Shown: positions 10,736 to 40,789 of the stretch, piece by piece
Layout of the letters: every line of letters begins with the position of its first letter
Numbering within the stretch: position 1 is the first letter of the stretch
Assembly (NCBI GenBank): GCA_963829345.1
Contig: CAWHHP010000004.1
Location: forward strand, 111,986 to 175,985
DNA length: 64,000 nucleotides
Direction of reading: 5' to 3'
Source of the DNA: an uncultured Chitinophagaceae bacterium
Lineage (GTDB): Bacteria > Bacteroidota > Bacteroidia > Chitinophagales > Chitinophagaceae
The notes under the pieces: model-generated
What the model was told of the DNA's origin: nothing
Seen by the model: only the letters and a program-made list of their open reading frames with translations
The model's database searches: none
Made by a program: the position numbers and the translations under genes

Positions 10736-10781
10736 ATGGAAAGGATCATTTTCACACTAAAAAATATTACCTTGCAACCTG

Positions 10782-11123
10782 TTGAAAACAAGCAGTTTCA
10801 TATTTGCTCTATATATTCTTTTTTTGGCATTGCATCCAGCTCTTAAAGAGCTTGATTTTTTTGAAAGCCAGGAAATAGCATCATGCTGTGATCATAGCTG
10901 TAAACCGGAAGATACGGATCAACAAAAAGACAATAAAGAAGAAACAAGTGATTTGCCTTGCAATCCGTTTCAGTCCTGCAAATGCTGCGTTGTATTTAAG
11001 ACTGATATTGATTTCCCGATTTCCAACCCCGTAATTCTTTTTAGAAAACCAGGAACTGATTATACCGAGAATATCCCACCTCATATTTCAAATGATTTTT
11101 GGCAACCTCCAAGAATAGCTTAA
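10782..11123 (+). CDS. Cys-rich WQPP leader-type protein 1 (DUF6660-like)
   Basis: TTG start 6 nt after TACCTTGC (10768-10775). Hydrophobic N-terminus, CCDHSC, CNPFQSCKCC, ends DFWQPPRIA. Confidence 0.75.
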   Translation: MKTSSFIFALYILFLALHPALKELDFFESQEIASCCDHSCKPEDTDQQKDNKEETSDLPCNPFQSCKCCVVFKTDIDFPISNPVILFRKPGTDYTENIPPHISNDFWQPPRIA

Positions 11124-11196
11124 TTGCCGTATTATTATTTCGTTCATAATTTCTATGAACGCCTTACTATTTTATCATTCATCAAAAATCCATAAA

Positions 11197-11550
11197 ATGA
11201 AATCTAAATTATTTTCATTCGTAATATTATTTATATTTTCTTTTGTAACAGTATCAGCGCAAACTTCAAACCAGGAAGCTGTAGCCGTAACTGACAAGCA
11301 ACAAACTCAAACAATTAAAATAAAGGTTGCAGGTATTAATTGTAGTGCCGATTGTAAGGACATTCAGAACACGGTAGCAAAGATGAACGGTGTAACAGCA
11401 TGCTCTTTAAAAGGTAAGCCCGGAGCAACAACAGCGTTTGAGGTAACATTCAATCCTTCTTTAATTACAGAAAAAGATATTCGTACAGCAGTAGAAGGTA
11501 CACCAGGTTGTAGCAACCCGGATTCAAGGCCATATAAGGTTAAAGGATAA
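11197..11550 (+). CDS. Secreted heavy-metal-associated (HMA) domain protein
   Basis: Likely start ATG 11197 (MKSKLFSF...VSAQ signal peptide). IKIKVAGINCSADC is a variant of GMTCxxC; HMA-like tail ITEKDIRTAV. Confidence 0.8.
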   Translation: MKSKLFSFVILFIFSFVTVSAQTSNQEAVAVTDKQQTQTIKIKVAGINCSADCKDIQNTVAKMNGVTACSLKGKPGATTAFEVTFNPSLITEKDIRTAVEGTPGCSNPDSRPYKVKG

Positions 11551-11560
11551 AACAATCACA

Positions 11561-13774
11561 ATGAAAATTCTACTGGTAGTTTTATTACTAACTGGCTCCG
11601 TCGTGTCCGTTGCTCAACCAGTTAAAGGCAGGGTAACAAATGACTCAAATCAACCTTTGCAAGGCGCTACAGTTAAATGGTTAAAAAGTAAAACAGCAAC
11701 ATTAACCAACAAAGCAGGTGATTTTATTATTGCATTGCCTAATAAAGGCAATCATACCTTGATCATAAGTTTTGTTGGATACGAGGCTATTTCTTTGGAA
11801 ATAGAGGATACCTCATTTATAAATGCAGTTTTAAAAAGCAAATCGACTTTGAATAATGTTACTGTTCAAAGCAATGCTGCTCATTACATTTCAAACAATC
11901 CTGTAAAAACAGAAGTAATATCTTCTATTGAATTAAAAAAAGCTGCTTGTTGTGATCTCGCAGGCTGTTTTGAAACGCAGGCATCGATTCAGCCACAAAC
12001 CACGAATATTATAACCAATTCAAAAGAGTTAAGAATTCTCGGTTTATCAGGTATCTATAACCAGGTATTAATTGACGGCTTTCCGCAAGTGCAGGCGCTA
12101 ACATATACTTATGGTATAAGCAGTATACCCGGTCCATTGGTTGAAAGTATTTTTATCTCAAAAGGAGCCAATTCTGTATTGCAGGGTTATGAAAGTATTA
12201 GTGGTCAAATAAACGTTCTTACAAGAGAACCTGATAAGGCTAATAAACTTTTGCTGAATGGGTACATAAACAGTTTTGGCGAAAAACACCTGAATGCATT
12301 GTATGCATTTAAAAAAAAGGAATGGAGTAATCTTACAGCTTTTCATATGGTTCAACCGGCAAACAGGATAGATAAAGATGGGGATTCGTTTTTGGATTTG
12401 CCGCTGCTAACCCGCTATATGATTTCAACAAGGTGGAAGAAAGGAGATGAAAACAAATGGGGTTGGAGTACGCAGTTCAATGTTCGCTATCTATCAGAAA
12501 AAAGGATTGGCGGACAGACTACTTTCAATTATCGAAAAGATAAAGGCAGTTCAGATGTTTACGGCCAGGCTGTAGATATTCAGCAACCTGAATTATGGTT
12601 TAAGACTTCCTACCGTATGAATGATGTACACAGGTTTGCTCTATATACTTCGGGCTTTTACCAGGATCAGCAATCTTATTTTGGGGTAACAAATTATAAA
12701 GCTTCGCAAACAAACGGATATGCTAATCTTCAATATGAGTACAGTTATAGCAAAAATGTATTAAAGACAGGTTTTAGTTATCGCTATATGAATTTATCTG
12801 AAAACATTTCTTTTTCTAATAATAGCTTAAACAGAACATATGCAGGCAAATACAATAAGGTTGAGAATATACCCGGAATATTTGCAGAAAACGTTTTAAA
12901 TCTTTTTGATAATAGGTTTACCTGGATTGCAGCTATTCGGGCTGATCACCATAATATTTTTGGATGGGAAGTTACCCCTCGTACCTTGTTGAAATATGAG
13001 ATTACAAAAAAACTAATTGTTCGTGCATCTGTTGGCAAAGGTTGGAGAACAACAAATCTATTTAGTGAAAATACCGGGTTGTTGGCAAGTTCGAGAGATA
13101 TAGTTTTCGCGGAAACATTGCAGCCGGAAAAAGCATTGAACTTTGGTTTTAACGCTACTCAGAAGTTTTCCGGTAAGCATTTAGAAGGATATGTCTCTTT
13201 GGATTTTTATCATACAAATTTCAGTAACCAGGTTTTTCCTGATTATGATGCTGATCCTACCAAAGCAATCATAAAGAACTTTACAGGAAAATCTGTTTCA
13301 AATGGATTCCAGGCAGAAATCAGCAGCACATTTTATAAGAGGTTTGCCGCAAAAGCTGGTTATGTATTCCTGGATGTTTATCAAATGAAAAATAGTTCAA
13401 GAAATATTTTACCATTTAACCCGCAACATAGGTTTAATAGTTCAGCATCTTTCATGCCTTTGAGTAAAAAATGGCATATCGACGCTAATATGCATTGGTA
13501 CGGAAAGCAAAGGTTGCCTGGTACCAAAACCAATCCCCTGATGTATCAACTTCCAGGTGAATCAGAACCATATACGATCGTAAATGGTCAGTTTACTTAT
13601 TTGATTAAGAAATTTGAGTTTTATGCAGGAGTAGAAAATATTTTTAATTTCAGACAACACAAACCCATAATTAGCTGGCAAGATCCTTTCGGGCAATATT
13701 TTGATACCCAGTTTGCATGGGGGCCAACAAGGGGAAGGGAAGCTTATGTGGGGGTAAGGTTTAATATTAAATAA
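11561..13774 (+). CDS. TonB-dependent outer-membrane receptor (metal-associated type)
   Basis: Signal peptide, carboxypeptidase-like N-domain (VKGRVT...LQGATV, LIISFVGY), plug with KKAACCDLAGCFET and KGANSV...ESISGQINV, C-terminal YVGVRFNIK. Confidence 0.92.
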   Translation: MKILLVVLLLTGSVVSVAQPVKGRVTNDSNQPLQGATVKWLKSKTATLTNKAGDFIIALPNKGNHTLIISFVGYEAISLEIEDTSFINAVLKSKSTLNNVTVQSNAAHYISNNPVKTEVISSIELKKAACCDLAGCFETQASIQPQTTNIITNSKELRILGLSGIYNQVLIDGFPQVQALTYTYGISSIPGPLVESIFISKGANSVLQGYESISGQINVLTREPDKANKLLLNGYINSFGEKHLNALYAFKKKEWSNLTAFHMVQPANRIDKDGDSFLDLPLLTRYMISTRWKKGDENKWGWSTQFNVRYLSEKRIGGQTTFNYRKDKGSSDVYGQAVDIQQPELWFKTSYRMNDVHRFALYTSGFYQDQQSYFGVTNYKASQTNGYANLQYEYSYSKNVLKTGFSYRYMNLSENISFSNNSLNRTYAGKYNKVENIPGIFAENVLNLFDNRFTWIAAIRADHHNIFGWEVTPRTLLKYEITKKLIVRASVGKGWRTTNLFSENTGLLASSRDIVFAETLQPEKALNFGFNATQKFSGKHLEGYVSLDFYHTNFSNQVFPDYDADPTKAIIKNFTGKSVSNGFQAEISSTFYKRFAAKAGYVFLDVYQMKNSSRNILPFNPQHRFNSSASFMPLSKKWHIDANMHWYGKQRLPGTKTNPLMYQLPGESEPYTIVNGQFTYLIKKFEFYAGVENIFNFRQHKPIISWQDPFGQYFDTQFAWGPTRGREAYVGVRFNIK

Positions 13775-13793
13775 GTTGAAACTTACAATTTTG

Positions 13794-13841
13794 AAATAAA
13801 TCTATCGTTATTGCTGAACTGCAACAACGATACATTTATTT
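13794..13841 (+). terminator. Long hairpin after the TonB receptor, probable intrinsic terminator
   Basis: aaataaa-tc-tatcgttattgc-tgaact-gcaacaacgata-ca-tttattt; one mismatch in the inner 12-bp stem. Confidence 0.45.
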
Positions 13842-39888: not shown

Positions 39889-39991
39889 ACGATTTATTGT
39901 GATTTTGAGATCTGCTTTTTATTTGCCTGAACATCTGTTTACGAATAAGCTAACTGAAGATTTTGCAAAGAAACAATAGAGAAACTAAATA

Positions 39992-40020
39992 TAAAAGCCC
40001 GCCACAAAAATGTAGCGGGC
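39992..40020 (-). terminator. Intrinsic terminator for the small Cys-rich gene
   Basis: Minus strand reads gcccgctaca-tttt-tgtggcgggc-tttta, 17 nt after the 40038 stop. Confidence 0.75.
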
Positions 40021-40037
40021 CTGTATTATTCAGCTAA

Positions 40038-40241
40038 TTAAGCTTTCTTGCAACAAGCAGGCACCGGATACTGGCAGTCTGTTGGATCGCAATTAGCAGC
40101 CGAAGTGCTACATTTCTTTTTGTCGCAGCATTCCGTTTTAGCTTTCTTTTTTGATTTGTTTTTTTTGCCTTTGTCTCCTGAGGCAAATGCAAAGCTCGTC
40201 ATCATAGCCGTAGCGAGCAAGCTTAAAAATACTTTTTTCAT
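40038..40241 (-). CDS. Small secreted Lys/Cys-rich (metallothionein-like) protein, 67 aa
   Basis: Signal peptide (...SFAFA), Lys-rich stretch, then CC-x4-C-x6-C-x4-C-x6-CC (7 Cys). Has its own terminator. Confidence 0.7.
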   Translation of the reverse strand: MKKVFLSLLATAMMTSFAFASGDKGKKNKSKKKAKTECCDKKKCSTSAANCDPTDCQYPVPACCKKA

Positions 40242-40280
40242 TTTAAGTTATTTAATGTTAGAAAATTTGTTTCGTATAAA

Positions 40281-40697
40281 TTAAATAACAAATTCGGGAG
40301 GTTGCCAAACACCGGAGGTGAAGGTTAATGGGAAATAAATATTCTTGTAACCATTTTTTACAGATGCTACAAAAGGCTTATTAATTACAACGTCATTTTT
40401 TGGCGAACAATCATATAAACAACCACAACAGGCCATGAAAGGATTACATGCGTCTTTGCATCCCTTTTCCTGGTCATTGTTTTGTTTTTTGCTGCAGGTT
40501 GGTTTGACAGGTTTGGAGCAACCTGGTTTTGCAGATTTAGAACAGCCTGGCCTAACAGATTTTGAACAGGTTTTCTTTTTAGAACAACTACTTTCTTTTT
40601 TCATAATTCCATCTAAACCGAGGTTACTTCCTGCTATCATGCATTGAGTAGAAAGGAATAAAACCACCACTGATAATATGGAAACTAAAATTTTCAC
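40281..40697 (-). CDS. Cys-rich WQPP leader-type protein 3 (DUF6660-like) with 8-aa CSK repeats
   Basis: GTG 40697 lies 5 nt after TACTTTGA (40710-40703). MKILVSILSVVVLFLS, CSKSVRPG/CSKSAKPG/CSKPVKPT, CNPFMACCGC, ends GVWQPPEFVI. Confidence 0.72.
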   Translation of the reverse strand: MKILVSILSVVVLFLSTQCMIAGSNLGLDGIMKKESSCSKKKTCSKSVRPGCSKSAKPGCSKPVKPTCSKKQNNDQEKGCKDACNPFMACCGCLYDCSPKNDVVINKPFVASVKNGYKNIYFPLTFTSGVWQPPEFVI

Positions 40698-40789
40698 TTC
40701 CGTCAAAGTAGTAATTAAAATTGTAAATTTTAAATTCATTATTTAAGCGGCAAAATTATTTTTTTAAAAGTGTTGATAATAAATAGATT

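Follow-up and report, generated by a model that had tools for sequence, protein, structure and literature searches.

Metal sensing by way of an exported peptide that, while still nascent, stalls the ribosome making it has been demonstrated only for CruR and CutF, both from Proteobacteria. CruR (Bp2923) of Bordetella pertussis, a DUF2946 protein, carries a CXXC motif followed by 45 residues, the sequence RAPP, three more residues, and the stop codon, a spacing that more than 2,000 proteins keep to within 1 to 2 residues; a ribosome arrested at RAPP blocks Rho, and copper undoes this arrest (PMC9426467). CutF, a DUF2946-like protein encoded in the cutFOG genes of Rhodobacter capsulatus, has a Sec signal and a CxxxC motif that lies 45 residues ahead of a proline-rich motif, and here copper prolongs stalling, so that a stem-loop over the cutO ribosome-binding site melts (PMC9973294; bioRxiv 10.1101/2025.02.05.636593). 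The concept of a metal-sensing leader that works as a nascent chain is already published (2022 to 2025). Here, we describe three open reading frames (ORFs) of similar design, ORF1, ORF2, and ORF3, in a 64,000-nucleotide (nt) stretch of DNA (the window) from an uncultured Chitinophagaceae bacterium (GenBank assembly GCA_963829345.1, contig CAWHHP010000004.1, positions 111,986 to 175,985). All three belong or are related to the Pfam family DUF6660, and each heads a unit of metal-related genes. From their sequences and by analogy with CutF and CruR, we put at roughly 0.6 the probability that each is the translated leader of its own unit, that is, a cis-acting sensor peptide of the CutF/CruR type that would be inserted into the membrane as it is made.

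What do the three ORFs have in common? A first-pass annotation of the window credited them with a single layout, and this was borne out down to the coordinates, motifs, spacers, and tails: a hydrophobic N terminus, the cluster C.PF..C..C, a spacer of 37, 39, and 37 residues, respectively, WQPP, and a tail of 3 to 4 residues (Table 1). Their alignment has 18 invariant columns, C.PF..C..C and WQPP among them. The resemblance is not due to chance, and the label "DUF6660-like" stands. ORF2 matches Pfam DUF6660 (PF20365) at E = 4e-12 with 45 to 47 bits, the gathering score being 27 bits, and has 86 close homologues. ORF1 and ORF3 score under the Pfam cut-off yet are found at E = 1.3e-9 and E = 8.7e-7, respectively, by a family profile of 228 DUF6660 members, the window ORFs excluded, run against the genome (5.1 Mb; 32,137 six-frame ORFs), and are therefore divergent members or sister subfamilies of DUF6660. 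The same profile detected no further DUF6660 copies among those ORFs. The layout of the family (an N-terminal hydrophobic helix, PCxD, CxPFCxCxCC, and a C-terminal [WFL][QH]PP) is present in the window ORFs apart from deviations in PCxD, where ORF1 is without the Cys (HPALKE instead) and ORF3 has QCMIAG. Homologues of the ORF1 type retain DFWQPPKI[A], and 11 homologues of the ORF3 type end in LWQPPE.V. All three ORFs lie on one 236-kb contig, and the closest public relative, a metagenome-assembled genome of Ferruginibacter (Chitinophagaceae), carries ORF1- and ORF2-type genes with their order unchanged. Two other readings of these ORFs were ruled out: a longer ORF3 beginning at ATG 40739, since the homologues all begin MK[LI].VSIL, and a lipoprotein reading of "LSC," since that first Cys varies (SA, SF, TA) whereas PC.D is conserved.

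The family as a whole shows where the constraint falls. A profile search of 1.84 billion cluster representatives returned 3,609 DUF6660 clusters (defined at 50% identity) at E ≤ 0.001. The 143 best representatives, with pairwise identity below 50%, have the C-terminal consensus [sa]-I-W-Q-P-P-[K/R/Q]-[L/I]-[S/A/G]-stop. In the 141 scorable representatives, both prolines are present in 100%, the Trp in 99%, the Gln in 97%, and the Ile at -1 in 91%, and the stop codon comes three residues past the Pro-Pro in 70%; distant members have FQPP, LQPP, or WHPP in place of WQPP. The WQPP codons differ synonymously from locus to locus, so the constraint on this motif acts at the level of the peptide. The distance from the last Cys of the cluster to the Trp is 39.1 ± 1.4 residues (range, 36 to 43; n = 157) over a poorly conserved sequence, whereas the linker from the hydrophobic segment to the Cys cluster, at 33.5 ± 5.6 residues (range, 27 to 53), is four times more variable. 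Five invariant or near-invariant Cys, plus a Pro and a Phe, run through the family, and the Cys cluster is as strongly conserved as the Pro-Pro. WQPP and its distance from the Cys cluster are thus conserved across aligned homologues; a spacer of variable length, which the first-pass annotation had named as grounds for giving up the idea, was not what the family has. The spacing between metal motif and Pro-Pro is conserved, as it is in CutF and CruR (39.1 ± 1.4 residues in DUF6660 versus 45 ± 1 to 2 in DUF2946). In the organism's own proteome, WQPP occurs twice, with 0.8 occurrences expected, counts that are too low to judge depletion.

Could DUF6660 instead be a small protein that works once it is mature? 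It might be a membrane-anchored or periplasmic Cys/His metal binder (a chaperone, pump accessory, or sensor in the manner of CusF or CzcI), with WQPPK as a C-terminal docking or folding motif and with translation coupled to that of the next gene to keep the two products in proportion. The rich sets of Cys and His ligands, together with an export signal, fit such a protein. Its structure does not: AlphaFold2, given a 36-sequence alignment, was confident only for the N-terminal helix (residues 2 to 17), with a mean predicted local distance difference test score of 56, and so yielded no confident fold beyond the transmembrane helix. A spacer whose length is far more conserved than its sequence is also hard to square with a mature fold. 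CusF and CzcI are likewise small, exported, and encoded beside resistance-nodulation-division (RND) metal pumps, but they are folded and stable and have no C-terminal Pro-Pro, whereas DUF6660 has that motif and no predicted fold. We regard the mature-protein explanation as unlikely, although it is the main rival of the leader reading, and further points on both sides of it arise below.

How might an arrested leader be connected to the next gene? A helix between the 3' end of the leader and the start region of the next gene is new here. In loci with cusA 70 to 135 nt downstream of DUF6660, z-scores as low as -6.7 mark the intergenic RNA as strongly structured. When coding context is added, the closing helix (P1) extends into the last codons of the leader. 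Pairing was examined without an alignment in 75 unique loci, with segment A running from stop-18 to stop+10 and segment B from start-35 to start+5. Cognate segments pair with a mean of -9.9 kcal/mol, versus -6.7 kcal/mol for non-cognate ones (Mann-Whitney p = 2e-18), and none of 5,000 permutations reached the cognate mean. Two controls were null: with A moved 40 nt upstream into the ORF, the means were -4.26 (cognate) and -4.37 (non-cognate) kcal/mol (p = 0.76), and with B moved into cusA they were -8.07 and -7.70 kcal/mol (p = 0.11). The strands of the helix in these loci are the tail codons, the stop codon, and the next 4 nt on one side and positions -20 to -5 of the downstream start on the other. 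Numbering the stop codon -3 to -1, 12% of the loci are paired at -12, 52 to 66% at -10 to -5, and 88 to 96% at -4 to +2; the 3' strand peaks at about 85% at -15 to -11 relative to the ATG. Compensatory pairs include GUGUAAUGAA / UUCAUUACAC versus GUAUAAUGAA / UUCAUUAUAC and UAAUCGU/ACGAUUA versus UAAUGUG/CACAUUA, and a further example is AAAUCAGUUAAUGAAU / AUUCAUU.AACUGAUU. In loci L104, L107, L111, L115, and L117, the stop-codon helix encloses two or three more hairpins, e.g., GUUCUGC...GCAGAAC and ACGGUGCUAACGCACCGC, and together they make up a multi-stem element some 100 nt long (z-scores as low as -6.7). RNAalifold found no structure in a poor MAFFT alignment of 48 complete intergenic regions, while a 24-sequence subgroup alignment yielded the helix. 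Searched at gathering thresholds, neither the window nor 12 loci matched any Rfam family. By analogy, this covarying mRNA helix is the element that a mechanism of the CutF/CruR type would need. Two points here speak against the mature-protein explanation: the invariant Pro-Pro stands fixed 2 to 4 codons from the stop with the 5' strand of the helix starting right after it, and the layout is the same as that of two experimentally proven arrest leaders.

The steps of the proposed mechanism are as follows. (i) As read from the sequence, the mRNA begins at, or within 2 nt of, a weak GTG or TTG start codon. (ii) The peptide, also as read from the sequence, has a signal-anchor at its N terminus, followed by metal-ligand motifs of Cys and His, a spacer fixed in length but not in sequence, the almost invariant IWQPP[K/R/Q], about three codons, and the stop. 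(iii) The ribosome would pause with the two prolines in its P and A sites. Counted from the first P-site nucleotide, a bacterial ribosome covers about 15 nt on the 3' side; given a 3-codon tail, a ribosome in this position would therefore reach the stop codon and hold most of the 5' strand of the helix, a plausible reason for the conserved length of the tail. (iv) With that strand in the mRNA channel of the paused ribosome, the downstream start region would stay open. Bacteroidota initiate without Shine-Dalgarno pairing, and the region from -20 to -5 of a start must be unstructured for initiation. (v) The Cys cluster would at this moment be 39 to 51 residues from the peptidyl-transferase center, in or just past the SecY channel. 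(vi) Metal binding, or the pulling force of export, would lengthen or shorten the pause and in this way set the translation of a pump, a receptor, or a secreted Cys-rich peptide.

The first of these steps draws on the promoters. Boxes of the -7 type lie 5 to 6 nt before all three starts, and the remark that the transcripts are nearly leaderless was not only correct for the window but describes a trait of the family. A perfect TAnnTTTG ends 4, 5, or 6 nt before the start in 18, 51, and 28 loci, respectively, together 97 of the 163 unique family loci (60%); at other distances, it occurs in scattered single loci. The -7 element of Flavobacterium johnsoniae spans -12 to -5, with transcription starting 4 to 5 nt past the box (PMC6847099), so boxes placed 4 to 6 nt before the start codon imply mRNAs that are leaderless or have a leader of 1 to 2 nt. 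Leaderless mRNAs make up only 5.5% in Flavobacterium psychrophilum (PMC9723704). The start codons in the 163 loci are ATG (96), GTG (61), and TTG (6); GTG and TTG in 41% of loci, on leaderless mRNA, would suit a regulator better than the stoichiometric partner called for by the mature-protein explanation. Public DUF6660 gene calls are often shortened to an internal Met (94 instead of 105 residues) or falsely extended at the N terminus, such entries being wrong because gene callers routinely overlook GTG and TTG starts. The boxes of ORF1 and ORF3 have the form TAnnTTG, which lacks one base of the canonical TAnnTTTG seen in ORF2. All ORF3-type homologues examined share this shorter box, as TAtcTTG followed by 6 nt and ATG. 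A similar motif of F. psychrophilum, SM5, has been ascribed to an alternative sigma factor (PMC9723704).

Does any of this concern metal? Conceivably, the leader merely opens the downstream start or prevents premature termination, with metal control left to separate regulators (an ArsR-type repressor for unit 3, a two-component system) and the Cys cluster put to some other use, such as rapid turnover. Dependence on translation, rather than on metal, is what the helix and the leaderless design show; the variant box of ORF1 and ORF3 may answer to another sigma factor; and unit 3 is divergent from an arsR-arsM operon. Pure coupling, on the other hand, gives no reason for a fixed distance between Cys and Pro-Pro or for a Cys cluster conserved to the same degree as the prolines, and in CruR and CutF the Cys motif does confer the metal response. 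We consider this explanation highly improbable.

The genes that follow DUF6660 are consistent with metal sensing by the leader. The first-pass annotation had proposed looking at which genes these are, and in a context set of 187 family loci from genomes and metagenomes, 178 of the 179 that could be scored have a metal-related gene next on the same strand (a CusA/CzcA pump, a TonB-dependent receptor, or an HMA-like gene). In 144 of the 179, this is a CusA/CzcA-type gene with the strict start pattern, and nearly all of the other 35 have cusA with a different start codon, a TonB-dependent receptor gene, or an HMA-like gene. Being encoded always beside pumps or receptors would suit a mature metal binder as well, and proteins of the CzcI type, without a Pro motif, do occur upstream of czcCBA.

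Table 1. Features of the three DUF6660-headed units (numbering of the window)
Feature	Position	Strand	Description
Unit 1 -7-type box	10768-10775	+	TAccTTGc; 6 nt before ORF1 TTG; TAnnTTGY form
ORF1	10782-11123	+	TTG start; 113 residues; hydrophobic segment 10788-10832; divergent DUF6660 member
ORF1 motifs	10959-10988 (Cys cluster); 11100-11111 (WQPP)	+	CNPFQSCKCC; spacer 37; tail RIA
Unit 1 hairpin	11141-11161	+	CGTTCATA/TATGAACG; 8 bp; 17 nt past ORF1 stop; terminator-like
Unit 1 output, exported HMA-like protein	11198-11550	+	Pfam E = 0.02; NCBIfam MerTP E = 1e-8
Unit 1 output, TonB-dependent receptor	11561-13774	+	
Unit 2 -7 box	13867-13874	+	TAtcTTTG; canonical Bacteroidota form; 6 nt before ORF2 GTG
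ORF2	13881-14198	+	GTG start; 105 residues; DUF6660
ORF2 motifs	14028-14057 (Cys cluster); 14175-14186 (WQPP)	+	CTPFCTCSCC; spacer 39; tail KIS
Unit 2 hairpin	14216-14243	+	GTTGCGCTACT...AGTATGCAAC; 17 nt past ORF2 stop; conserved in Chitinophagaceae loci
Micro-ORF between ORF2 and cusA	14272-14367	+	31 residues here, about 48 in relatives
Unit 2 output, cusA/czcA-outer membrane protein (OMP) fusion	14424-18745	+	Frame-shifted at least 8 times
Unit 2 output, cusB	18899-20095	+	
Unit 3 -7-type box	40710-40703	-	TActTTGa; 5 nt before ORF3 GTG
ORF3	40281-40697	-	GTG start at 40697; 138 residues; Lys/Cys-rich insertion; divergent DUF6660 member
ORF3 motifs	40419-40448 (Cys cluster); 40296-40307 (WQPP)	-	CNPFMACCGC; spacer 37; tail EFVI
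Unit 3 P1 helix	40247-40289	-	GUUAUUUAAU (40289-40280) with AUUAAAUAAC (40256-40247)
Unit 3 output, exported Lys/Cys-rich peptide	40038-40241	-	67 residues
Unit 3 terminator	39995-40022	-	Own terminator of the unit

The three units of the window differ in what lies between the leader and the next gene. Masking of the downstream start by mRNA, as in CutF, is present in the main class of the family (the 75 loci above) and in unit 3, has a weak candidate in unit 1, and is absent in unit 2. The unit 3 helix (-7.8 kcal/mol) is formed by the tail codons, the stop, and 1 nt on the 5' side and by positions -15 to -6 of the next start on the 3' side, which is in register with the family-wide map, and it is kept in loci L087 and L210; covariation is minimal in the small, AT-rich set of unit 3 type, and the five ORF3-type loci are too alike in sequence for a comparison of cognate with non-cognate pairing to be informative. 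The unit 1 hairpin recurs in L004 and L084 by position, not by sequence. In the unit 2 hairpin, 4 of the 7 consensus pairs show compensatory changes. A chain of 4-bp alternative pairings in unit 2 (TGGC/GCCA, CCAU/AUGG) was too weak and was dropped. In units 1 and 2, which have a hairpin about 17 nt past the stop in place of this helix, control may take the form of attenuation, the CruR mode, or of a relay.

Each unit also has its own output. As for unit 1, ORF1 had been described as heading an HMA gene and a TonB receptor gene; the receptor and the gene order stand, and the order (ORF1 type, 120-residue HMA-like, TonB-dependent receptor) is repeated in metagenome loci L084 to L086, but the HMA call is weak, as its Pfam score indicates (Table 1). 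ORF2 does not lie directly upstream of cusA-cusB as had been thought, because a conserved micro-ORF intervenes. It is found in 45 Chitinophagaceae loci, leaves about 6 nt between its end and the start of cusA, and in L005 to L081 is positioned about 75 nt past the DUF6660 stop. Its unannotated product, with the consensus M.T.KKSKKAKQPL.LRVIKIIVI.LCCAILLAAIAERI.HFYRHITK, has a basic N terminus followed by one transmembrane helix and matched no Pfam family; the copy in the window is shortened at a T6 run. The frame changes in the cusA-OMP gene, at least 8 in number, fall between 14424 and 16883, while relatives have an intact protein of about 1,435 to 1,440 residues and other long ORFs of the window (3,572, 1,062, and 737 residues) are intact. 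The breaks reflect either local decay of the gene or a local assembly error. For ORF3, the claim that it heads the gene of a secreted Cys-rich peptide proved right, and the pair it forms with an exported Lys/Cys-rich peptide of 57 to 65 residues is conserved, divergent from arsR-arsM, in L087 to L090 and L210 to L212.

Units 1 and 2 are adjacent (10.7 to 20.1 kb), unit 3 adjoins ars genes (40 to 42.5 kb), and the intervening 20 kb is unrelated. At 13803-13832, a 12-bp inverted repeat separates the TonB-dependent receptor gene from the promoter of ORF2; this repeat probably ends unit 1, which would make units 1 and 2 separate transcripts. Between units 2 and 3, at 23750-34468 on the forward strand, lies the 3,572-residue ORF, which combines Kelch, PKD-like, and reelin-subrepeat domains with a C-terminal sorting domain for type-IX secretion. 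In metagenome contigs, the modules (DUF6660 with pump, ORF1 type with HMA and TonB receptor, ORF3 type with peptide and ars) occur beside relaxase, MobC, primase, and integrase genes, as in L084 (8487-10348) and L087 (1305-2642), which suggests a mobile metal-resistance island.

Several observations weigh against arrested sensing leaders at these loci. Unit 1 offers only a weak helix candidate of 5 to 7 bp, and in unit 2 and the Chitinophagaceae micro-ORF class, no cognate-specific pairing with the next start was detected (p = 0.3). A ribosome paused at the Pro-Pro would not reach hairpins located 17 nt past the stop codon. A helix containing the stop codon is no proof of arrest on its own, since plain translational coupling needs it too, and such coupling would serve a mature protein without any arrest. 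Stretches of the spacer are moderately conserved inside subfamilies, which is also compatible with a functional mature protein. To our knowledge, QPP followed by Lys is not among the strongest stall contexts that depend on elongation factor P. Homology with DUF2946 is not detectable, either: Pfam PF11162 (DUF2946) had no match at E ≤ 10 among 36 DUF6660 members, and hhalign gave a probability of 0.3% between DUF6660 and four DUF2946-like proteins of Bacteroidota. The parallel between the two families is thus one of design only. The proposal that DUF6660 is a Bacteroidota counterpart of CruR is partly supported in this sense, by the layout, the ruler-like spacer, the neighboring genes, the leaderless promoter, and the covarying helix, and of the readings considered it is the best. 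Bacteroidota do have a few DUF2946-like proteins, in which CxxC is followed by 43 to 44 residues, R[AG]PP, and 3 to 5 residues. In 201 sampled Bacteroidota genomes, DUF6660 scores above its Pfam cut-off in 32 and DUF2946 in 2.

How new, then, is the system? The first-pass annotation knew of no such mechanism for this family, and no paper in the literature searched names DUF6660. As a claim of novelty this was too strong, because the mechanism is published for DUF2946 and "CutF-like" proteins of Bacteroidota have already been surveyed. Ozturk et al. (2023) collected 5,334 such proteins, 19% of them from Bacteroidota, with OEP, ACR_tran, HlyD, and TonB neighbors (PMC9973294), classes of genes that recur beside DUF6660. 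Their filters (fewer than 150 residues, an N-terminal signal peptide, Pro-Pro among the final 15 residues, and a gene on the same strand no more than 1,000 nt downstream; PMC9973294) are satisfied by DUF6660, the signal peptide being judged from the AlphaFold2 helix at residues 2 to 17, and DUF6660 is probably among the proteins they found. Like CutF, DUF6660 is a small first gene whose product carries an export signal and, some 40 to 45 residues before a C-terminal Pro motif, a Cys metal motif; the genes downstream serve metal detoxification, and an mRNA stem masks the downstream initiation region, which a stalled ribosome is proposed to open. Unlike CutF, to which it has no detectable homology, it has IWQPP[KRQ] and not a PPP-type motif, and in place of CxxxC its metal motif combines CxPFCxCxCC with PCxD and His. 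What is masked, moreover, is a start without a Shine-Dalgarno sequence, the helix includes the leader's own stop codon, and the mRNA is predicted to be leaderless. ORF1 resembles CruR in heading the operon of a TonB-dependent transporter. CruR acts by Rho-dependent termination across a 162-nt gap, whereas the units of the window have gaps of 39 to 74 nt with hairpins; its signal peptide is dispensable, and copper relieves its arrest.

The putative arrest motif has parallels of other kinds. SecM (RAGP), ApdA/ApdP (RAPP), and the selected arrest peptide FXXYXIWPP(P) all place a Pro in the A site after a short motif that contacts the tunnel. An aromatic or Ile-Trp context directly before the prolines is a further likeness, DUF6660 having [YF]xIW, and by analogy, a release of arrest that is sensitive to export, putative for DUF6660, would group it with them. 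DUF6660 differs from FXXYXIWPP(P) in the Gln between Trp and Pro-Pro, and SecM and ApdA/ApdP monitor secretion, not metals. Coupling by long-range mRNA pairing, the RNA-unfolding type, is known from RNA phages and some operons. There too, the last part of the upstream ORF base-pairs with the start region of the next one, so that the first cistron must be translated to open the second; what sets DUF6660 apart is that the helix lies 2 to 4 codons past an invariant Pro-Pro and is combined with an exported metal-ligand peptide. Taken further, IWQPP[K/R/Q] might be an undescribed natural arrest motif of Bacteroidota, read through a stop-codon helix that masks a start without Shine-Dalgarno sequence on leaderless mRNA. 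The three diverged copies on the mobile island would then separately control an RND pump, an HMA/TonB-receptor pair, and a secreted metallothionein-like peptide, in convergence with DUF2946. We put this forward tentatively, at a little short of even odds.

If the leader reading is true, DUF6660 would be a main route by which Bacteroidota control heavy-metal efflux and uptake. Its likeness to the synthetic FXXYXIWPP suggests a natural counterpart of that sequence. It would also offer an entry point to translational control in a phylum that does without Shine-Dalgarno pairing.

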